A stretch of DNA of 64,000 nt from a phage: sequence record NC_100372.1. One strand, 5' to 3'. The notes beneath the pieces are model-generated. The model was given only the letters and a program-made list of their open reading frames with translations. It did not search any database and was not told the origin of the DNA. A program made the translations under genes and the position numbers. Shown piece by piece: positions 160 through 51,455 of the stretch. The stretch's first letter is position 1. Every line of letters starts with the position of its first letter.

Positions 160-243
160 GTGTCCGTATCACGGACAGTTAGTGTCCGTATTACGGGCAA
201 ATGTGTCCGCGTGACGGACAGTAGTGTCCGTATCACGGACAGT
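160..243. repeat. Four tandem ~21 bp repeats, each built on the palindrome GTCCGT-N3-ACGGAC, at about 21-bp spacing (starts 160, 182, 203, 224); copies 1 and 4 identical
   Basis: Read directly: gtgtccgtatcacggacagt at 160 and 224, variants gtccgtattacgggc (184-198) and gtccgcgtgacggac (205-219). AT-rich tract 121-159 immediately upstream. Confidence 0.8.
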
Positions 244-316
244 TACTAACCTCTGTTCCATAGTGAACATAAAACATACAAATCCTTATAGTACAGATGT
301 TTAAGTTTTTACTGGT

Positions 317-9821: not shown

Positions 9822-10144
9822 TGACTAAAAATTCTGTAGATAATGCAATTATGGAAGCTGTTTTTGAGGATGATCATACAACAGGGACCCTTAAAACAAA
9901 AAATACATTTATTGTTGCTACAGGTATGTGGCGGTTGTATGAAGATGACACTATTGCATACATCCTGTATACTGATGATTACGCAGATGATCGTGTATGG
10001 TCTGCTGTTTTAAAAGAAGATTGCGAGCTGATTGAGGGCGAGCGGTTATGCATGTTTACCAGCGTGGAAACAGACGTTAAGCTTTGCTCTCTTGTGCTAT
10101 TCAAAGACAAAGCTTATTCTCCAGATGAAGAGGAAACAGCATGA
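9818..10144 (+). CDS. Hypothetical protein
   Basis: 108-aa acidic ORF, translationally coupled on both sides. Confidence 0.4.
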   Translation: MMTKNSVDNAIMEAVFEDDHTTGTLKTKNTFIVATGMWRLYEDDTIAYILYTDDYADDRVWSAVLKEDCELIEGERLCMFTSVETDVKLCSLVLFKDKAYSPDEEETA

Positions 10145-38890: not shown

Positions 38891-40355
38891 CACACAAGTC
38901 TGCTTTGCAGGTTTAGCTGCTCAGCTAAGGTTCTGGAGTCACCTATAACATCTTCCAACTAAATTTCCTACCAACACAGTTACTTACCCACCACACATGA
39001 CTGTTTGCTTGTTTAGTGAGCAGTCATCCCTTGACATTCTTGCCTATCTTGATAAAATTAAGTTCTTCTCTTTTCTTTTACCGAGTAATTCGGGTTTTCT
39101 GTTCTCTTCGGTTTGAAGGGGTATGGAGATACACCTGAGTGAACAGGGTGAACAACCGAACCTTTAGCTATGGCATTAGCATGGCGAAGCGGACGGGTGA
39201 CGAAAGAGGGGCCGGAGGACACCAGTCACTGCCATATAGTATATGGGTGATAACCTGAAGAGTCTGAATAAGTGTTTAAGTACCAGTCAGAGGAAAAGGT
39301 GAATGGTAGCCGAAGGGGGAGGGGGGTTTCTTATATCTTTAATTTGTATACTTTATATACACTTGTAAACCAATTCAATTAGGATCTGTTTACCACACAA
39401 AGTGGATGGAGACAAATATCACCTATTAAACTTGAATTATTTATAGAAAATACCACAACACCGCTTAAGTCTTTGATTTTACACACAAATCTTACAAATA
39501 TCCTACCTCCATATTTAACATACTTGTAACATATTCCATATCCTACCTGCCTGATCAATTTACTCCCACCACATTCCCACATTTTCCCTGTCTGTACTAC
39601 CCCACCCCCGCCGGGAGTCCCGTCATATCTGGCTTTCCAGCAAATATCACACCCACAAATATCATCACCTGAAGAGGGTTTCATCCCATAATACCTGCCT
39701 TACCTGAAGAGCGCTTCATACACCACCTAAATTTTTTAATTGACCCCTCCCCGCCGCCGGAGAGGTTGGCTTTTCCCACACAGGCCTGAAGAGTCAGCCA
39801 GAAATATCTGAACAGGTCCAGTTATGCCCCGATTTTGTGCTTGTCCTACAGGAGTGCTGCCCTGTCAGGAGCCGGTAGCGACTGGAGTGCTGCCAGGCGG
39901 ACGGAATGGGAATACTTCTCATTTTTATAATAATTCTCAAATATCGAGGCAGTGAGGCAAATTAATAGGCCAGGCCGTTCACACAGTGGCACAACATTTG
40001 CAATCTATCTTGTGGGAGTGAATGAGAATACCTATCATTGTGAGAATGGTTATCATTACGGGCAATTTAACATAATACCTATTATGCGCACCACTGGCGA
40101 TACATACAGGGATTGATAACATGGGTTACTGTTTACGCACATAACAATTATATTTATTACTATTTGTGTGGGATATAGTTAGCAACCAATAGATTAGATA
40201 TTGACCTGCAGACTTCTGACCGTCCAGACGTCTAAACGCCCACACAACAAGGATTATACATACATTCCTGAATGTAAACAGGGCCGCAAAAAATGCTACC
40301 ATACCAGTTTGTAAATTTTTCATGCAGCACTTGACAAAGAGGAGAAAAACTTGTC

Positions 40356-40417
40356 TGACACAATGTGACAAAATTGCCACTTTTGACACTTTTACCTTTG
40401 ACACAATATGACACAAT
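40356..40417. repeat. Cluster of five TGACA(C/A)(A/T)(A/T)T repeats
   Basis: tgacacaat 40356, tgacaaaat 40366, tgacacttt 40384, tgacacaat 40399 and 40409; inside the ORF-free region. Confidence 0.6.
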
Positions 40418-40443
40418 AACGGCTGTTACTATTCCATATCTCA

Positions 40444-40503
40444 CTGTTTACGTATAGACTGTTTACGCCTGAATAGTTTACGCCCAAACTGTTTACACAG
40501 AGA
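40444..40503. repeat. Four tandem 15-bp repeats with core TGTTTACRC
   Basis: ctgtttacg 40444, ctgtttacg 40459, tagtttacg 40474, ctgtttaca 40489 (exact 15-bp period); extra copies at 40129, 40900 and 40943. Confidence 0.8.
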
Positions 40504-40510
40504 TGATAAG

Positions 40511-40750
40511 CCATGACATTCGTTTGCATGAAAACAATTAACAAGTTAATAATATATGACATAATATAAAAGCAGGGCAACTATTAGAAGATCTATAGTT
40601 GCCTTGCTTGTTATGTCATGATTAACTAAATACAAGGCAACTATGATCTGAATAATAGATTGCAGAAAAACTATCACGGGGGTGATTGTTACTGCTTTTA
40701 TATTATGTCGCGACTCCGTCGCGCCATGCCATTCGTTTGCATAGTTGCCT
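40511..40750. repeat. Nested dyad-symmetric element
   Basis: Perfect 18-bp inverted repeat gacataatataaaagcag (40558-40575) / ctgcttttatattatgtc (40692-40709); inner palindrome ggcaactat-N10-atagttgcc (40576-40603); GGCAACTAT again at 40636 and inverted at 40741; flanking direct repeat cattcgtttgcat (40517 and 40731); palindrome cgcgac-tcc-gtcgcg (40709-40723). Confidence 0.8.
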
Positions 40751-41357
40751 TATTGTTACAGGTAAAACAATTACATTATTAATTATTTCTTATCTTTCTC
40801 TTAGTCATCTAATGATTCCAGTCAGTATAGTAATGTACAGTAAACATTAGACGACTAAAGATTTCTCTGTGTATAATAACTTATCGTGACAATTTCGAAC
40901 TGTTTACGAAAAATGTTGACACCTGAGCTGATTTATGTTATGCAGTTTACACGAATAATTATTTTATGCAGGTATTGACTATTCCGTTATTCTGTGGTTG
41001 GAATAAATACTTTGCAGACTATAGAATGGCGTGCGTACGTGAATTCTGAGATCTGGCGGCTATAGTTATACTCGATTTTTCGCGTAGAACACGCTTTCGA
41101 TGCTGTGTAAGTGTATGACTTATAAAGATTTTTAGTTGTTGACAAGATATTGGAGATGTGCATCAGGTTAAAATTTGTGCAATAGCGGCATTACGTGCAC
41201 TTTTGGGAGAGAAAACGGGTAAAAATGGCCCTGCTACCACACAATGAAAGATTATGCAATGGTTATTTTCCATGTATATTTGTACAGTATGTGGGATTGA
41301 TGGCTAGTCAATTATTCCACTTGCCAGGTAGGGCCGTTTATGGTAGGAGAAGAGCAG

Positions 41358-41386
41358 ACAAAAAGAAAGGGGCCTTTAAGCCCCTT
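41358..41386 (-). terminator. Intrinsic terminator for the minus-strand block
   Basis: Plus-strand aaggggc-ctttaa-gcccctt; on the minus strand it is followed by tctttttgtc; sits just past the stop of 41405-41824. Confidence 0.65.
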
Positions 41387-41404
41387 GATAATTCAGTTAA
41401 GAAA

Positions 41405-42232: not shown

Positions 42233-42288
42233 GATGTTTTCCTCTTTATGTGGTTCGTTTCGATTAGTTGATAATATAGCATGAATTG

Positions 42289-42507
42289 CTATTTACTCAC
42301 AACAATATCGAAAACAAATTTTTCTTTGTTGTCAAAACTCACGTATCCGATTCGACCACGCAATCCCCGAGTAGTGCCGTATTCGTAACCATCAAGGCCT
42401 TTAACCTTCCAATCCGTACCCATTAAAACCGCATTATATTTCTGACCAACTACAAAAGCGCTACCAGTTGATTCAATGCAAACAACTTTAATTTTACGGG
42501 TTGCCAT
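42289..42507 (-). CDS. Hypothetical protein
   Basis: 72-aa ORF. Confidence 0.4.
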   Translation of the reverse strand: MATRKIKVVCIESTGSAFVVGQKYNAVLMGTDWKVKGLDGYEYGTTRGLRGRIGYVSFDNKEKFVFDIVVSK

Positions 42508-42569
42508 TTTCTTTCTCTCTTTTTGTGCGGTTCTGATTAGTGGGCCTTTTGGCCCGTGTCATTATCTTA

Positions 42570-43767: not shown

Positions 43768-43983
43768 CTATGCTGTACGCTCAACTATAACAACGGCTTG
43801 AGGGATCTCACCTTCAACCACTATCAAGGCTTTTTTCTGCGTGATAGATATCTTTACCCGCTTCAGCGTGGCGGTAAAATCTTTCATTTCGTCACGTGGT
43901 GTTTTAGTGCAATACCAGATCTCAGGCTTGCCGATCTGCAAGTTGCGTAAAAATTCTGTTTTGCCTGTTTTGTTGGTGATCAT
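43768..43983 (-). CDS. Hypothetical protein
   Basis: 71-aa ORF. Confidence 0.35.
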   Translation of the reverse strand: MITNKTGKTEFLRNLQIGKPEIWYCTKTPRDEMKDFTATLKRVKISITQKKALIVVEGEIPQAVVIVERTA

Positions 43984-44039
43984 TTGCCCCTCTTTATTTT
44001 TTCATAATTTCAGGAGGGGCCTTTTCGGCCCCGCCAGGC

Positions 44040-44532: not shown

Positions 44533-44883
44533 TTATTTTGCATTATTTCCTATATTGCCGCTACGGTACCAGCGTTTACGGTGAAAATGGTAATAATCGC
44601 CATCGGCATTGAACATCAGATGGTTTTCAATAACCAGCTTACGAAGGTGGGCCGGATCTTGTTCCATTCTTGCCAGACTCTGGCGGCTGTTACGTAAGCG
44701 GATAAATTCCATATTCAGGCCGTTGATTGCAGCATGGATGTCAAAGTAACCACCTTTGAGACGTTCACGCATGGCGTTAATCTCAACACAATATACAGAT
44801 TTCTCACAAATCAAGGTATTAGCCAGGGCGCGGACCTGGGCAAGGGGGTTAAGCTCATTAAGGTAATATAGTTTTACTTTCAT
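44533..44883 (-). CDS. Hypothetical protein
   Basis: 116-aa ORF. Confidence 0.4.
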   Translation of the reverse strand: MKVKLYYLNELNPLAQVRALANTLICEKSVYCVEINAMRERLKGGYFDIHAAINGLNMEFIRLRNSRQSLARMEQDPAHLRKLVIENHLMFNADGDYYHFHRKRWYRSGNIGNNAK

Positions 44884-44900
44884 AAAATAACCTGCTGAAA

Positions 44901-45221
44901 CTAGTTTGAGAAAACATCGTTCACAATAGCGATCACAATGCCGTTCACCTTGTCACGGTCAACAATGCACAAATCGCCATAGATCATGTGGTAGTCTGGA
45001 TGATCTTTCACGGAATAATCAATGAGTGTTTTCTTATCGTCCAGCTTACTAACTTCCATTCTCATAACGATATGAGAATCATCAAAGGCATTATTCCGAA
45101 AAGTCATAACCTGACCGCCAGGGCACCCGGTGATCTCTACTTCCACGCCGTCTACGATCTGACCATCAAAGAAATAAAGATTATTAGCCTGGATAAACAT
45201 GATCATTACTCCTTTTTGCAC
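44901..45221 (-). CDS. Hypothetical protein
   Basis: 106-aa ORF; preceded on the minus strand by the 45-bp repeat element. Confidence 0.4.
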   Translation of the reverse strand: MQKGVMIMFIQANNLYFFDGQIVDGVEVEITGCPGGQVMTFRNNAFDDSHIVMRMEVSKLDDKKTLIDYSVKDHPDYHMIYGDLCIVDRDKVNGIVIAIVNDVFSN

Positions 45222-45244
45222 TGATTATTTTAACAGGGTTTAAA

Positions 45245-45289
45245 TTTACTTTATTGATGGCCCTGGAGTCAAGGCCATCTAAAAATAAA
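45245..45289. repeat. 45-bp direct repeat copy 1 with internal palindrome
   Basis: tttactttattgatggccctggagtcaaggccatctaaaaataaa; identical to 48988-49032; palindrome gatggcc-N10-ggccatc; the minus strand reads TTGACT inside the loop. Confidence 0.85.
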
Positions 45290-45291
45290 TT

Positions 45292-45492
45292 TTACAGGCC
45301 TACAATCTCTTTAATTCGTTTTACTGCTGCCTCAGCGCCTTGAGGGTAAAAATTATGGTAACCAATCACGCGGGTAATACTGATCGCCACTTGATGATCT
45401 TCATAATCGCCTTTGAAGATTTCTTGACCGTCAATCAGCACGGCAATTTTTTCTTCTTTTTTGAAGTTAATAACGCGGATATTGTTGCTCAT
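45292..45492 (-). CDS. Hypothetical protein
   Basis: Start at MSNNIRVINFKK within the longer track ORF 45292-45579. Confidence 0.4.
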   Translation of the reverse strand: MSNNIRVINFKKEEKIAVLIDGQEIFKGDYEDHQVAISITRVIGYHNFYPQGAEAAVKRIKEIVGL

Positions 45493-45971
45493 TTTGTTTC
45501 TCCTTTCTGGTCTTTGTGTTGGTGGGGATTGCTCCCCGTTGATTGTTATTATCCATATTTCCGGACCGGATTGCAACACCCTAGAAGAAAAATTTTTGAA
45601 AAAGTTAAGCCCCCAGGGATTGGGGGCCGTTATCAGTTACTTACAGCGATAAAGTACATCCCTACGCCTAACAATATTTCAAGGGCGATGATCTCAAGCC
45701 ATACCGTAACACGGCGCACCTTATCGGTGCGGGGCTTATCCTTGGGTGTCATCGTCTCCCCCTTTCCTCCTGTTAGCAGTGACGTGGTTTGCAATGGCCC
45801 CCAGGAGTATTATCACCACGCACATTACAAGAAAAATTATCTCTGTCGTTGTTCGATCCATTGTTATAAAATTCCTTAAGATCAGGCCTGAAAATAAAGC
45901 TTTCGTTATTGAATCCATCCCGCCAGGCGGCTGGCTTCAAATCTTCACTAAATGGATTAATTAACGTGGTA

Positions 45972-46343
45972 TTATTTAAACGGCTGGCCCACATATTTTC
46001 TATTCCTCTCAAATAAGCGATCCGCCTCAGTTAAACAAATCTCATGGGCGTGATCTCTGGTTTTAGCTTCATCGAAAACCTGTTGTGCAAGGCTGCAACG
46101 TAGGGAGACTGGAAGATCACTATAATAGGCGTTGACAAACGTTTGAGCGTCGTACAGGTCTGAAAATACTTTACCCTTTCTATTATTCCCCTTGTCAACA
46201 ATTGCAAGGATAACCAATACAATAGTTGCAACCACTCCCAGGAAGATAGATATAATAAACCATAAAAAGGCGGATCTACCCATCTTGCCAGCGATCCAGG
46301 CGTTAAACAAGGCAACTAATATAGCCAAAATAATAAATTCCAT
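45972..46343 (-). CDS. Membrane protein (two predicted TM helices)
   Basis: MEFIILAILVALFNAWIAG and FLWFIISIFLGVVATIVLVILAIV; start trimmed to MEFIIL. Confidence 0.4.
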   Translation of the reverse strand: MEFIILAILVALFNAWIAGKMGRSAFLWFIISIFLGVVATIVLVILAIVDKGNNRKGKVFSDLYDAQTFVNAYYSDLPVSLRCSLAQQVFDEAKTRDHAHEICLTEADRLFERNRKYVGQPFK

Positions 46344-46410
46344 TCTATGTACCTCTTTTACAGTTCTGATTAACAATAAGGCGGCAAATATGCCGCCGCC
46401 TGTTACCTGA

Positions 46411-46827
46411 TTAAAAATTATCGCCGTAAATCTTTCCGCTTTCTACCCATACCACCACGCGGGGCATACTATCCCACACATCTTGTTTTAGATTGAGCGA
46501 GTGCAGTTCTTCGGTGGTGCTCATACCGGGCACGGGCTGATTGTATACTGCAAAACGACCGCCTGCATAATCATAGGCCAGGGTTAAATCACACTGGATC
46601 ATCTTTTTGATCATGGCATTAAGCATAGCGTTAGCCGCGTACTGATCTCGTTTTAATGGCAACTCTTTAATCAGTTTGCGATAGTTTTCGATATGGTCGC
46701 ACACTGTTTCACGCGGAAGATCTTTCATATCTTCACGGAATGTAACCAGGTTAAACATAACGGTGTCAATAGCTTTAGTAGTGTTTTTCATGATGTTTTC
46801 CTCTTTGTTTTGTGGGAGGCAAGTCAT
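46411..46827 (-). CDS. Hypothetical protein
   Basis: 138-aa ORF. Confidence 0.4.
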   Translation of the reverse strand: MTCLPQNKEENIMKNTTKAIDTVMFNLVTFREDMKDLPRETVCDHIENYRKLIKELPLKRDQYAANAMLNAMIKKMIQCDLTLAYDYAGGRFAVYNQPVPGMSTTEELHSLNLKQDVWDSMPRVVVWVESGKIYGDNF

Positions 46828-46882
46828 CTCGCCCCCTTGAGTTTTAAATATAGCAGGTTTTTAGATTATTGCAACACTTTAT

Positions 46883-47506
46883 TTATGAAAAACTCATCTC
46901 ACCATATTCATCCACATCAAACCGCCAATCATTGGCTTCAATAAGGCCGATCAGGTTTTCGGTAGTAAACTGTTCAAGATAGGCCTCCTCCAGGTCTACA
47001 TAAACCTTGCGGGATAGCTCCCGTACCGTCTCGGTGATCAGCTCTTCCAGGTCTTCCACTTTGTTTTCTTGTTTGGCGGTCAGATCTAGCCAGGTGGTAT
47101 CAATGTATCCGCTTACAGTGTTTTCATGGCTGTAATGGCTGTACTTGTCGCGTTCAACACTGGCTGATAACTCGCCATCGTGCATTGTGCCGAACAAGTG
47201 ACGAATTGATCGGAACTTGGTCAGGGCCTTTACTTTACGCAAGAATTTTTCTAAATCCACGTTTTCAGCACTGATTGACGCGCCGTCACCCTGGCACCAA
47301 AAGCCGGACCAATGTACTTCGGTATCTTCAAGGCCGTACTCTGGAAAAACTTGTTCTTTATAATATTCAATTACACTTTCTGCGAAAAAATCCTCTCCGC
47401 TGTGTTCTTCTCTTTCGCGGACCATTTCAATAGCTTTTTCTTTTTGTTCGTCGGTCAGCACGTCGAAAGATAAATTGCAACCTGTGGTAATGTTAACGGT
47501 GGTCAT
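46883..47506 (-). CDS. Hypothetical acidic protein
   Basis: 207-aa ORF with an AGGAGA RBS. Confidence 0.45.
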   Translation of the reverse strand: MTTVNITTGCNLSFDVLTDEQKEKAIEMVREREEHSGEDFFAESVIEYYKEQVFPEYGLEDTEVHWSGFWCQGDGASISAENVDLEKFLRKVKALTKFRSIRHLFGTMHDGELSASVERDKYSHYSHENTVSGYIDTTWLDLTAKQENKVEDLEELITETVRELSRKVYVDLEEAYLEQFTTENLIGLIEANDWRFDVDEYGEMSFS

Positions 47507-47534
47507 GATATTTTCTCCTGTTTTCTTTATTAGT

Positions 47535-47591
47535 GGCGGGAAGTTTTCCCGCCTGTGTGTTTAATTATACTTATTGAGATTTACTTGTCAA
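47535..47591 (-). promoter_or_regulatory. Promoter-plus-leader-hairpin module (minus strand)
   Basis: Minus strand reads TTGACA (plus 47586-47591), 15-nt spacer, TATAAT (plus 47565-47570), then hairpin GGCGGGAA/TTCCCGCC (47535-47553), then RBS and the ATG at 47506. Confidence 0.45.
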
Positions 47592-47841
47592 CACTATTTT
47601 TTAAATTATTGTGGCGTAAAATGTTCAAGATCTCTTCAACGTCATCAACACGGCGGTAATTTTTAAACGCTACCAATTGCCCCATGATTTTAATCACTGG
47701 GCGGCCTTGCCAGTGCCCCTGGAGAAAGCGCGCCTTGACTTTATCGGTGGAGCTATCACGCCACCAAATGGCCTTGTTGTTGCAGTAGTAAAAATTATTC
47801 AGGACAACATCAACCTTATCAAAATTTTTTAATTTACGCAT
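47581..47841 (-). CDS. Hypothetical protein
   Basis: 86-aa ORF. Confidence 0.4.
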   Translation of the reverse strand: MRKLKNFDKVDVVLNNFYYCNNKAIWWRDSSTDKVKARFLQGHWQGRPVIKIMGQLVAFKNYRRVDDVEEILNILRHNNLKNSVDK

Positions 47842-48082
47842 GGCGTTTACTCCTTTCTCTCTTTGATGTGGTTAGTATAGCTAACCTGTTTAAGATGTCA
47901 AGCTTTAAATAAAATCACTGTCAATAATATTTTTAACGCCATAAAACGGCCCTGGGCGATGTTTTCAGGTTAAGAAAGGCGATTGCATAGGTGGGGGCCT
48001 TTTCGGCGCTTACAGGGCCAACCAGGGGCGCTATTCGTAGGATAGAAATAAAAAGCCCCGCACAATGGCGGGGCGTTGGTTG

Positions 48083-48304
48083 TTATTTGTCTTTATGGCG
48101 GTATCGTTCTGCCTGTCGTTCACGTTCCAAAAGTAGGCCAGGCAATTTACGATCATAATGATTTCGCCAGATCTTTCCAAATCTTTTTGGCTTATTTAGT
48201 TTATTGTTACGCTGGCGGCGTTCCGGCAGCTCTTCGGAATCATGAGATCGCTTTACAATCTTCTCAAAATTAATCTTCATATATTCCCCCCTTGCTAACT
48301 TCAA
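48083..48304 (-). CDS. Hypothetical basic protein
   Basis: 73-aa Arg/Lys-rich ORF. Confidence 0.35.
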   Translation of the reverse strand: MKLARGEYMKINFEKIVKRSHDSEELPERRQRNNKLNKPKRFGKIWRNHYDRKLPGLLLERERQAERYRHKDK

Positions 48305-48641
48305 TATTTGCCTGAATAGCCCGGATACGGCGCTTTATAACTTCCTGGTCTGTGTGATCGTATCCCCAAAAGTCTACAATTTTTGCGCCCCCCGCCTCCA
48401 GGCGGTATAGTGTTTCCTGCATCTTGTAAGCCGGGACCGGTCGCGGTGTTACTTGGTCACCTTCTTTATTTTTATACTTTATAATATAATCTTCGTTATC
48501 GTTGAATGCCCAAAATGGATATTTTGCAAGGGCGTTGCTTTCTTTTTCGTTCTTAGATTGGATCTTGTTTACAATTAAAGCCGTAGCAATAGCGCCGATA
48601 ATAAAACTTGCACCGCTGATCATGTTACTTTCTCCTTTCAT
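48270..48641 (-). CDS. Hypothetical protein with N-terminal TM helix
   Basis: MISGASFIIGAIATALIVNKI; 123 aa. Confidence 0.4.
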   Translation of the reverse strand: MKGESNMISGASFIIGAIATALIVNKIQSKNEKESNALAKYPFWAFNDNEDYIIKYKNKEGDQVTPRPVPAYKMQETLYRLEAGGAKIVDFWGYDHTDQEVIKRRIRAIQANIEVSKGGIYED

Positions 48642-48698
48642 GGTGTTAATAAATTATCTTTATAGATGGCCCTGCAGCCAGGACCACCGAAAAAATAA

Positions 48699-48944
48699 CT
48701 ATTTCACAATGCCCACAAAACAGATCCCGCCTTCCCCGACGTAGGCAATATCGGTCACTTTGTAGTCGGTTAAGATCTGTTTATTCAGATCATTAATAAA
48801 ATCGGTCATTGCGTTGGTGTAGTTGTCTTCCATGTCTAGGGAATAATCCCAGGTGTAAACCTTTTTACGTCCGAAGCCTTTAACAACAACACGGGCACCT
48901 TTGGTGTTGGTTGGTGCATAGTATTTAGTGATTAGTGCTGCCAT
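48699..48944 (-). CDS. Hypothetical protein
   Basis: 81-aa ORF; preceded on the minus strand by copy 2 of the 45-bp repeat. Confidence 0.4.
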   Translation of the reverse strand: MAALITKYYAPTNTKGARVVVKGFGRKKVYTWDYSLDMEDNYTNAMTDFINDLNKQILTDYKVTDIAYVGEGGICFVGIVK

Positions 48945-48987
48945 GGTTTTAACTCCTCTGTATTAGTTCAGTGTTAACAGTGTAAAG

Positions 48988-49032
48988 TTTACTTTATTGA
49001 TGGCCCTGGAGTCAAGGCCATCTAAAAATAAA
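48988..49032. repeat. 45-bp direct repeat copy 2 with internal palindrome
   Basis: Identical to 45245-45289; flanks also similar (taaa(t/g)tttact). Confidence 0.85.
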
Positions 49033-49033
49033 C

Positions 49034-49438
49034 TTAGTAAGTTTTCAGTACTTTACCGTCCAACCTGTCAAGCTGGATCTCGATAGCTGCAGAAAACCTA
49101 TTGTACACCACGTCGCCCATGGAATCCAACCAGTCTATGACGTTATACACCTGCTCTTTGTTCTTGCAGGTCCGGATCCGTTTCATGATGTAAGCCGGAT
49201 CAATATTGGTACTTTCGTTGGTGTTCCCCTGTACCTGATTTGCCGTATTAGTTACATCTTTAATGGCCTTTACCACCACCTGGAAGGGCTTTAAGGTGCC
49301 TTTTGCGTTCATCTCACGCGCTTTTGCGGCGCGGTTGTTATATGTTACACAACGGCGGCAAATGTTCACCAAATGCATGTCAATAATTTTTTCATCGTTT
49401 GCCAGTTCGTTCATGATGCGGCGTACGTTCTTATTCAT
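49034..49438 (-). CDS. Hypothetical protein
   Basis: 134-aa ORF. Confidence 0.4.
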   Translation of the reverse strand: MNKNVRRIMNELANDEKIIDMHLVNICRRCVTYNNRAAKAREMNAKGTLKPFQVVVKAIKDVTNTANQVQGNTNESTNIDPAYIMKRIRTCKNKEQVYNVIDWLDSMGDVVYNRFSAAIEIQLDRLDGKVLKTY

Positions 49439-49457: not shown

Positions 49458-49514
49458 GGCGGGAAACATTCCCGCCTTTTGTGACTAGTTTACTTGAATT
49501 TTGCAGCGTGTCAA
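49458..49514 (-). promoter_or_regulatory. Promoter-plus-leader-hairpin module (minus strand), second copy
   Basis: Hairpin GGCGGGA-aacat-TCCCGCC (49458-49476); minus strand TTGACA at plus 49509-49514; same architecture as 47535-47591. Confidence 0.4.
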
Positions 49515-50845: not shown

Positions 50846-50980
50846 TCATTCAAAATTCTAAATGAGAACTTTTCGCATTTCATAAATTTAGTTAGCATGC
50901 TAATTACCTACCGTGACAATTCTATATAAAATAATACCTCCTTAAATATTTCCATATACAAATTTTAAAAATCCATTTCC

Positions 50981-51150
50981 GAAAACGAAAAATCGATTTC
51001 GTCCCCAAAAATTTCAGGTCGAGCTCCGGAACGATTTCCAGAAAATCTGATTCAGAAAACGAAAAACAGATCGAGTACTAAGAAATTTATCGAGAAAAAT
51101 TTTCAGAAAATTCAATCTTTGAAACGAAAAACAGATCGAGTACTGAGAGA
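50981..51150. repeat. Imperfect tandem direct repeats, about 66-74 bp period, core GAAAACGAAAAA(C/T)(A/C)GAT(C/T)
   Basis: gaaaacgaaaaatcgatttcg 50981, gaaaacgaaaaacagatcgagtact 51055, gaaacgaaaaacagatcgagtact 51121; ATCCATTT(T/C) also recurs at 50971, 51324, 51341 and 51396. Confidence 0.75.
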
Positions 51151-51386
51151 GATGTATCAAAACCTGCTGAGAATAATGGGTTTATTGTTATAAAGGGTCA
51201 AAGGTAAGCTGGGAAAGTTCCGGTAGAAGGGTGAGAGTATGTGCGGAAAATCTGGAATAGTAACTTAAAGTACGGTGCGAACGATAGAATGAGCAGCACA
51301 TCTTATCGCGCCTGTCTTGAAAAATCCATTTTAGTTTTCGATCCATTTTCTGATTTTCTAAGAATTTTAAAATATCCGGCTAGGTA

Positions 51387-51417
51387 AAATATCAAAAGGA
51401 GGAAATCCATTTTAGAA
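51387..51417 (-). terminator. Candidate terminator for minus-strand transcription entering the ORF-free region
   Basis: aaggagga-N15-tcctcctt; on the minus strand followed by ttgatatttta; large loop lowers confidence. Confidence 0.4.
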
Positions 51418-51455
51418 ATCCTCCTTATACTTGATGTGCCAGGGATTTTCAAGTA

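Follow-up and report, generated by a model that had tools for sequence, protein, structure and literature searches.

The 64,000-nucleotide stretch of phage DNA analysed here (sequence record NC_100372.1; hereafter the window) carries a repeated intergenic element of ~51 nt that we judge, with moderate confidence, to be a composite regulatory cassette of the promoter-early stem-loop (PeSL) type, located in the small-gene block of an rV5-like phage. As duplex DNA, canonical copies would be sigma70 promoters (an AT-rich UP-like tract, TTGACT, 18 nt, and TAAAYT) that re-initiate transcription for the next gene, starting ~35 nt before its ATG. Read-through RNA from the upstream gene would fold into a long hairpin that marks a transcript boundary, most likely as a processing or 3′-stabilizing structure and probably not as an efficient terminator. 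Identity over 45 nt would, in addition, make the copies substrates for homologous recombination or replication slippage, and also for gene conversion, and cassettes with their own promoter could then be deleted, inserted, or swapped with their neighbors undisturbed. The most informative property of the element, which an earlier note on this DNA overlooked, is that its copies are breakpoints at which a gene cassette has recurrently been gained or lost.

Sequence comparison placed the window in Vequintavirus (rV5-like Escherichia coli myoviruses), with 92–98% identity to ~120 genomes of this genus and a closest match (97.8%) to vB_EcoM-ECP26. The element copies sit in a block of small minus-strand genes, probably early genes, that spans ~39.3–64 kb; the plus-strand block stops near 38.9 kb. 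A 45-nt string, TTTACTTTATTGATGGCCCTGGAGTCAAGGCCATCTAAAAATAAA, occurred exactly twice in the window (45245–45289 and 48988–49032) and was never matched in 100 dinucleotide-preserving shuffles, even at 3 mismatches. The earlier note was thus right that an exact 45-bp repeat, intergenic in both cases, lies upstream of two minus-strand genes and that it contains a TTGACT and the palindrome GATGGCC-N10-GGCCATC. The repeat unit is really ~51 nt (45242–45292 and 48985–49035), however, and is self-complementary throughout on the sense strand. The note also missed a third, degenerate copy, and its proposal that two genes would be controlled coordinately is too narrow for a family with 3–4 copies per genome. 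Copies and candidate promoter hexamers in the window are as follows.

45242–45292, minus strand: element copy 1 (slot 1), the full 51-nt hairpin, with inner stem and loop at 45256–45279
45267–45272, minus strand: candidate –35 hexamer TTGACT of copy 1 from a consensus scan, with TTG in the stem and ACT in the tetraloop
45243–45248, minus strand: candidate –10 hexamer TAAATT of copy 1, 18 nt after the –35 and within the 3′ strand of the outer helix
48985–49035, minus strand: element copy 2, a hybrid of slots 2b and 2, with inner stem and loop at 48999–49022
49010–49015, minus strand: candidate –35 hexamer of copy 2 from a consensus scan
48986–48991, minus strand: candidate –10 hexamer TAAACT of copy 2, at 18-nt spacing from the –35
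48651–48701, minus strand: element copy 3 (slot 3), degenerate (75% identity), found by repeat search, with inner stem at 48665–48688

Sense-strand hairpin and candidate promoter

The complete 51-nt unit forms, on its sense strand, a 21-bp hairpin in which an 11-bp A/U lower helix and a 10-bp GC-rich upper helix (GAUGGCCUUG/CAGGGCCAUC, including one U·G pair) are separated by a 2x3-nt internal loop and topped by an ACUC tetraloop. The upper helix of copy 3 (GGUGGUCCUG/CAGGGCCAUC) keeps the hairpin with two extra G·U pairs. RNA folding of the sense strand gave ΔG values of –23.6 kcal/mol for copy 1 (z = –7.3), –25.4 kcal/mol for copy 2 (z = –6.9), and –22.4 kcal/mol for copy 3 (z = –5.4), compared to antisense z values of –3.1, –4.4, and –1.4 (–8.1 kcal/mol for copy 3), respectively. 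A covariance model scored the three copies at 81, 85, and 72 bits, and copy 1 scored 81 bits on the minus strand versus 40 bits on the plus strand. The earlier note had proposed a search for further copies across the complete genome. With filters off, the model found no significant copy beyond these three in the whole 64-kb window and only the same three, all within ~3.8 kb, in the complete ECP26 genome (137 kb).

The element is present in ~120 Vequintavirus genomes, where it is 95–100% conserved, mostly as three near-identical (canonical) copies and a degenerate one; most relatives carry four copies and the window three. The three window copies and the 66 copies examined from 18 genomes all run from an upstream stop codon in an AT-rich tract to the Shine-Dalgarno (SD) sequence and start codon of the next gene. 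A pattern scan of IMG/VR returned only two rV5-like contigs, with remaining matches attributable to chance; in a metagenome scan with the stem pattern, the rV5-like contigs showed only the same four slots, with no sign of the element in other contexts.

Comparison of these 66 copies, which represent 40 distinct 62-nt sequences, argues that the hairpin has been selected. First, 97.4% of 840 pair cells were standard pairs, as opposed to 36–56% when the 3′ partners were slid by 1–3 columns. Second, four lower-helix pairs changed on both sides (G-C/A-U/G-U, U-A/C-G, U-A/G-U/A-U/G-C, and A-U/U-A), and the 39 doubly changed cells compared to 13.7±4.6 in shuffles, with none of 500 shuffles as high. 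Third, RNAalifold recovered the same two helices when the structure was not supplied. Fourth, pairing favored the sense strand, both overall (97.4% of cells versus 85.1% antisense) and in slot 3 (97.8% versus 77.9%), with 110 G·U cells on the sense strand and 7 on the antisense strand. Fifth, within the 44-nt core of canonical copies, 4 of 9 unpaired columns varied (tetraloop positions 3 and 4 and internal-loop positions 1 and 2) compared to 1 of 35 paired columns (Fisher p = 0.004), and the change in that single paired column, C to U opposite G, kept the pair. Finally, slot-3 haplotypes differed by compensatory changes in the outer helix (U-A to C-G; A-U to G-U to G-C). Folding as single-stranded DNA was much weaker (–12.6 kcal/mol, z = –5.4). 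Because the single-stranded DNA fold is weak and slot 3 lacks the lower helix as DNA, yet its pairs covary, the selected structure is most simply RNA, which would form in read-through transcripts from the upstream gene.

Two copies departed from this pattern. Slot 2b of Gotham (L003, 9515–9545) has a 5-nt deletion in the 3′ arm that removes the GGCCC-equivalent bases, leaves a 13-nt spacer, and destroys both stem and spacer, and slot 3 of Alma (L002, 5130–5170) has one additional G and a G-to-T change in the stem; these could be genuine decay products or sequencing errors at the hairpin.

The sense strand of copy 2 reads TAA (stop) G TTTATTTTTA GATGGCCTTG ACTC CAGGGCCATC AAT AAAGTAAACTT ... 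AGAGGAG ... ATG. A sigma70-type scan identified TTGACT-18 nt-TAAACT in this copy and TTGACT-18 nt-TAAATT in copy 1, each with 9 of 12 consensus matches, preceded by an AT-rich UP-like tract and followed by SD and ATG. The distal UP-element subsite is reportedly AAAWWTWTTTT, which the T-rich tract upstream of the –35 resembles, with a displacement of ~2 bp towards the –35. Transcription from copy 1 would be predicted to start near 45236. TTGAC was invariant among 29 distinct canonical copies, and the two bases that follow it varied, giving loops of ACTC, ACAC, ACTT, ACGC, and ACAT; the first variable base corresponds to the sixth and least-conserved position of the –35 hexamer. Canonical copies therefore bear a constraint beyond the hairpin that is consistent with a promoter. 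By contrast, the –35 is lost in copy 3 of the window (CTGGCT) and in slot 3 across relatives (CTGGYW where canonical copies have TTGACT), and the slot-3 "–10" decays from GATAAT through GATAGT to GACAGT, in step with changes that preserve the helix. Because slot 3 keeps its hairpin by compensatory changes as the –35 and –10 decay, the hairpin must be selected independently of the promoter.

The idea of a duplicated promoter cassette is thus reasonable, supported by the hexamer pair, the UP-like tract, the SD/ATG, the invariant TTGAC, and a PhagePromoter call in Gotham, although promoter activity itself is predicted from these features. The –10 assigned in the earlier note was wrong: the TAAAGT-like hexamer placed ~17 nt after TTGACT really lies at a distance of 13 nt, where it is unusable, and the only usable candidates are TAAACT and TAAATT at 18 nt. 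Database labels of the same sequence conflict, with "terminator" on copies 1 and 3 in Murica and "promoter" on copies 1 and 2 in Gotham; the element is unannotated in EdH4 and Alma and is absent from both the promoter and the terminator tables of the rV5 genome paper (PMC3606486).

Transcription across the element

The genes that flank the copies, all encoding proteins for which a Pfam scan (eight flanking proteins) gave nothing above threshold, are arranged as follows.

44901–45200, minus strand: gene downstream of copy 1, 99-aa hypothetical protein (MFIQANN...) from the open reading frame (ORF) list, annotated in relatives as a 300-bp coding sequence
45292–45492, minus strand: 66-aa ORF upstream of copy 1, with a stop codon that adjoins the copy
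48699–48944, minus strand: gene downstream of copy 2, 81-aa hypothetical protein, homolog of rV5 gp186
48270–48623, minus strand: gene for a 117-aa homolog of rV5 gp185, downstream of copy 3
49034–49438, minus strand: 134-aa ORF upstream of copy 2, homolog of rV5 gp189, with a stop codon that adjoins the copy

Copy 1 starts at the final base of the stop codon of the 66-aa ORF, and the stop codon of the 134-aa ORF overlaps the 5′ end of copy 2. The 81-aa gene is enclosed by copy 2 upstream and copy 3 downstream; in a tblastn search with its protein, the only homologs outside Vequintavirus were in unrelated siphoviruses, at <46% identity. Both exact copies lie directly upstream of the genes named in the earlier note, but the GTG start at 45221 given there for the first gene is unlikely. 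This gene most likely begins at ATG 45200, which has an AAGGAG SD sequence 8 nt upstream and is the start annotated in relatives; a 116-aa ORF (44533–44883) follows 17 nt after its end.

Inspection of the intergenic region and a promoter scan revealed no convincing promoter for the gene at 48270–48623, which therefore must be expressed by read-through across the copy-3 hairpin. If so, this hairpin cannot be a strong terminator. Neither strand has a U-tract after the stem (the sense tail is AAUAAAGUAAA), and a terminator scan passed over the element while calling hairpin and T-tract sites nearby. Because there is no U-tract and no terminator call, and because read-through is needed at slot 3, we rank a processing or 3′-stabilizing structure above a terminator as the likely RNA role.

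It is nevertheless conceivable, if unlikely, that the main function of the hairpin is to end the upstream transcript as an intrinsic (Rho-independent) terminator or an attenuator, with the promoter then restarting transcription. Like such terminators, the element is a stem-loop located directly after a stop codon, with a GC-rich 10-bp upper stem, and two annotation pipelines labelled copies as terminators, including the Murica annotation. Termination has also been proposed for PeSL stem-loops, one of which cut lacZ expression as strongly as rrnB T1 (PMC2839356). The U-rich tract that defines an intrinsic terminator, within 0–2 nt of a GC-rich hairpin, was not found in the element, however, and its T-rich run lies upstream of the stem on both strands. 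Moreover, the compensatory conservation of the 11-bp A/U lower helix would be unneeded for termination, the sites that the scan did call nearby were genuine hairpins with T-tracts, and the gene after copy 3 depends on read-through.

By comparison, the 11 + 10 bp of duplex and 2x3 internal loop of the element match the ~20–22 bp, with an optional internal loop, of an RNase III substrate. The resemblance extends to a length of about two helical turns (21 bp here versus an ideal of 22 bp) and to the interruption of the duplex by a small asymmetric internal loop. In E. coli RNase III substrates, an internal loop directs a single cut and leaves a stabilizing 3′ hairpin (Nicholson, 2014; PMC3867540). 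The hairpin's size and shape thus fit published E. coli substrates, and processing by RNase III may be its fate. The element also resembles the RNase III hairpins of the early genes of phage T7 in being an intergenic hairpin, as are those in the polycistronic early transcript, but it is unlike the T7 sites in sequence and matches no Rfam family; an Rfam search of 43–51 kb at E <= 1 returned one spurious snoRNA match only. RNase III processing hairpins reportedly lie between the T7 early genes and are not known to contain promoters, which is a further difference from the element, with its putative promoter.

Copies at recombination breakpoints

In 12 of 18 genomes, a two-gene cassette of 621 bp has a canonical copy in direct orientation on either side (slots 2b and 2); the cassette is absent from the other 6. 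Cassette-bearing genomes include Murica, EdH4, Alma, rV5, JES2013, JEP1, navn, MaxTheCat, A6-1, and ECO111 5-P. The cassette lies between homologs of the 134-aa and 81-aa genes, together with a further copy of the element, and contains genes for a 39-aa membrane peptide and a 113-aa acidic protein as well as an internal TTGACA promoter, which is accompanied by a hairpin in the 5′ untranslated region (UTR). The window, ECP26, ime, magaca, phiWec189, and one IMG/VR contig lack it. Each of these has a single hybrid element, with the upstream flank of slot 2b and the downstream flank of slot 2, which therefore points to a crossover inside the identical 45 nt. The cassette-less genomes form at least four flank groups, each nearest to a cassette-bearing genome, as follows.

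ime and magaca: closest to EdH4, with 100% identity on both sides (400 nt and 340 nt)
window and ECP26: closest to ECO111 5-P, 95–99%
phiWec189: closest to rV5 (upstream) and navn (downstream), 99%
IMG/VR contig (IMGVR_b): closest to JES2013 (upstream) and to navn and Gotham (downstream), 96–97%

With four or more flank groups, cassette loss (or gain) must therefore have recurred or have spread by recombination in the flanks. Loop variants add to this picture, as the same variants recur at different slots and are often common to copies within one genome (slots 1 and 2 of rV5; slots 2 and 2b of navn and of EdH4, Alma, and JEP1), which suggests gene conversion. A divergent contig (L014) keeps the slot-2b element but has a different downstream gene.

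Three further cassette indels distinguish the window from rV5, JES2013, Murica, and others (42257–42518, 44549–44907, and 43977–43988). The 72-aa and 116-aa genes are specific to the window relative to some genomes, and relatives hold an extra 0.7–1.0 kb at 43977–43988. The borders of all three are formed by 8–15-nt homologies in ribosome-binding-site (RBS) and start-codon regions instead of the hairpin element. The entire block is hyperplastic, with the element as its longest homology. We also considered rV5_ev146 (L023, LR699804), an "evolved" rV5 derivative with one copy, as a candidate for repeat-mediated deletion. It lacks 5.5 kb of rV5 (L024; gp163–gp183, including slot 1) and 0.5 kb (gp189 and slot 2b), but neither deletion is bounded by the element, which rules out this explanation; identity to rV5 is locally only 87–97%, and the genome is hence recombinant.

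Breakpoints of this kind might be expected if the element were not regulatory at all, but a selfish or neutral palindromic repeat (resembling miniature inverted-repeat transposable elements or repetitive extragenic palindromes) or a DNA cruciform or single-stranded hairpin that is maintained through duplication and gene conversion and does no more than provoke slippage and recombination. Apparent conversion among copies and the deletions that they mediate fit this idea, as do a small and local family, the ability of single-stranded DNA to fold, and the endonuclease VII-type enzymes encoded by the phage. We regard it as improbable, since the copies have a constant orientation exactly between stop codon and SD/ATG, the TTGAC loop bases are invariant, and compensatory substitutions keep the hairpin even in diverged slot 3, where conversion does not homogenize and where the outer helix is lost as DNA although its pairs covary. 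In addition, there are no terminal inverted repeats, target-site duplications, or copies elsewhere.

Least probable of all is the proposal that GATGGCC-N10-GGCCATC is a DNA operator at which a dimeric regulator, from phage or host, blocks the –35 and turns two genes on and off together: a perfect 7-bp inverted repeat does bracket the –35 and is extremely conserved across ~120 genomes and between copies, but symmetric half-sites are not conserved as DNA in all functional copies, as the slot-3 half-site differs by two transitions (GGTGGTC versus GATGGCC) that break DNA symmetry and keep RNA pairing as G·U, leaving the antisense pairing of this slot far below its sense pairing; the palindrome is only the top of the 21-bp hairpin, and pairing, conserved on the sense strand only, continues for another 11 bp in the A/U flanks, where compensatory changes occur; variant L014 has an extra base between the half-sites and retains the stem; and we found no candidate regulator, the flanking genes being without Pfam domains. 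The operator part of the earlier note's interpretation was therefore not borne out.

Relation to PeSLs and other repeats in the block

The PeSL-type reading draws on elements described in the T4-like phages RB49/phi1, PST/T4, and nt-1/KVP40 (Arbiol et al., 2010, PMC2839356; Comeau et al., 2014, PMC4122927). A PeSL starts at the stop codon of the preceding gene within an AT-rich tract, contains a sigma70 promoter together with a stem-loop, and has SD and ATG at the 3′ end; the stem-loop can occupy five positions relative to the promoter, including one that overlaps the –35, and G·T pairs are allowed (PMC2839356; PMC4122927). PeSLs lie among ORFans, neighboring copies recombine and thereby delete or insert cassettes, degraded half-copies occur, and genomes have dozens of copies (PMC2839356; PMC4122927).

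The rV5-like element shares the intergenic placement from a stop codon in an AT-rich tract to SD and ATG, the stable stem-loop, and G·T(U) pairs in the stem. Its –35 and –10 hexamers are sigma70-like candidates (9/12), and the stem-loop overlaps the candidate –35. The element likewise lies among small ORFans in a hyperplastic block, with adjacent copies at the borders of cassettes that are variably present between close relatives and with degraded "half" copies, and the same block holds other intergenic regions with promoter and hairpin and other cassette indels. The PeSL description also includes experimentally shown promoter strength, attenuation by the stem-loop, and formation of mini-circles. 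Several features differ. Vequintavirus is unrelated to the T4-like myoviruses that define the PeSL host range; there are 3–4 copies within ~4.5 kb rather than dozens per genome; the stem is GATGGCC.../...GGCCATC rather than Gn-loop-Cn; the whole promoter, including the UP-like tract and –10, lies inside one 21-bp hairpin with a covarying lower helix; and the missing U-tract and evidence of obligatory read-through make termination doubtful. In the searched literature, we found no report of PeSLs in rV5-like phages. The element is the same kind of "mobile regulatory cassette" as in T4-like phages, and extends a known concept rather than introducing a new principle.

A number of points weigh against this assignment. 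The hexamers of copies 1 and 2 match the consensus at only 9/12 with a suboptimal 18-nt spacer, copy 3 has no –35, and the element was omitted by the stricter screen of the rV5 genome paper, which demanded >= 10/12 hexamer matches and a 15–17-nt spacer (PMC3606486). The outer helix, rather than promoter function, could explain much of the conservation of the –10 and AT tract, and our literature search found no Vequintavirus transcript maps of transcription starts or RNA ends. Copies from related genomes are not independent observations, and the family is tiny, with none of its copies elsewhere in the 137-kb genome. Only one cassette indel is tied to the element, and other indels in the block use the short RBS/start homologies. 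In principle, a single deletion that spread by flanking recombination could explain the cassette-less genomes, or these assemblies could be repeat-collapse artefacts in which the assembler skipped the segment between 45-nt repeats; artefact is unlikely as the cause of every case, because six independent projects are involved.

Other repeats and hairpins occur nearby. A second composite intergenic type is found on the minus strand at 49458–49514, 47535–47591, 46800–46874, and 45500–45576 and inside the 621-bp cassette of relatives (L004, ~9900–10000). It comprises a strong TTGACA/TTGCAA-N16/17-TAnAnT, ~10 nt, a GC-rich 5′-UTR hairpin without a T-tract, SD, and ATG, and several of its hairpins have GGCGGGAA...TTCCCGCC in common. 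These regions look like PeSL-type elements with a stem-loop downstream of the –10 or like 5′ stabilizers of mRNA. At window positions 160–245, four tandem copies of a 21–22-nt unit, each with palindrome GTCCGTnnnACGGAC (GTGTCCGTATCACGGACAGTTA), have the appearance of a binding-site array. An origin or regulatory function is possible for two long non-coding stretches that contain internal repeats: in 40324–41404, the motifs GCGTAAACAG and (A)TTGTGTCA recur and GGCAACTAT lies within long inverted repeats, and 50850–51455 has direct repeats of 47–55 nt (GAAAACGAAAAACAGATCGAGTACT). The rV5 paper mentions a "non-coding" box (PMC3606486).

The identical 10-bp stem, here capped by a GNRA-type loop within the frame ATTTCCTC-GATGGCCTTG-GCRA-CAGGGCCATC-CGGGAA, occurs in an unrelated family at metagenome loci L035, L039, L040, L045, L046, L048, L050–L053, L055, L056, and L058–L061, on phage-like contigs of 53–65% GC. 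Its members directly precede the SD/ATG of many different genes, and at one locus there is a further copy whose stem differs; matches to the Pseudomonas phages phiPSA1 and Medea1 were weak. Coincidence probably accounts for the shared stem, but this family looks like another repeated regulatory hairpin of 5′-UTRs. Separately, 17 GenBank records named "Campylobacter phage" (MG0656xx, host C. jejuni) carry the element of the window and are ~92–93% identical to E. coli rV5-like phages over the region, which suggests that the host labels are wrong or that the dataset contains coliphage contamination.

More speculatively, and as a possibility that we hold only tentatively, PeSL-type cassettes with a promoter in the hairpin could be a general device of large virulent phages that evolved convergently and is not peculiar to the T4 family. 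In the rV5 lineage, the AU-rich UP tract and –10 would be transcribed as the two strands of a helix of RNase III length, so that one 51-nt sequence would serve as a promoter in DNA, a processing and stabilizing signal in read-through RNA, and a portable recombination site by which self-expressing cassettes could enter and leave the genome.

The PeSL-type reading carries the idea of a mobile regulatory cassette beyond T4-like phages, into an unrelated group with wide use in therapy and biocontrol. It would explain the presence or absence of the two-gene cassette, which is among the commonest differences in gene content of rV5-like isolates, and would reconcile the contradictory "promoter" and "terminator" annotations of the same sequence. 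At 51 nt, the element is also a compact test object, with natural variants that separate hairpin from promoter, for asking how one sequence accommodates both a promoter and an RNA structure. Finally, the 45-nt repeats would predict sites of DNA loss in engineered or evolved rV5-like phages.

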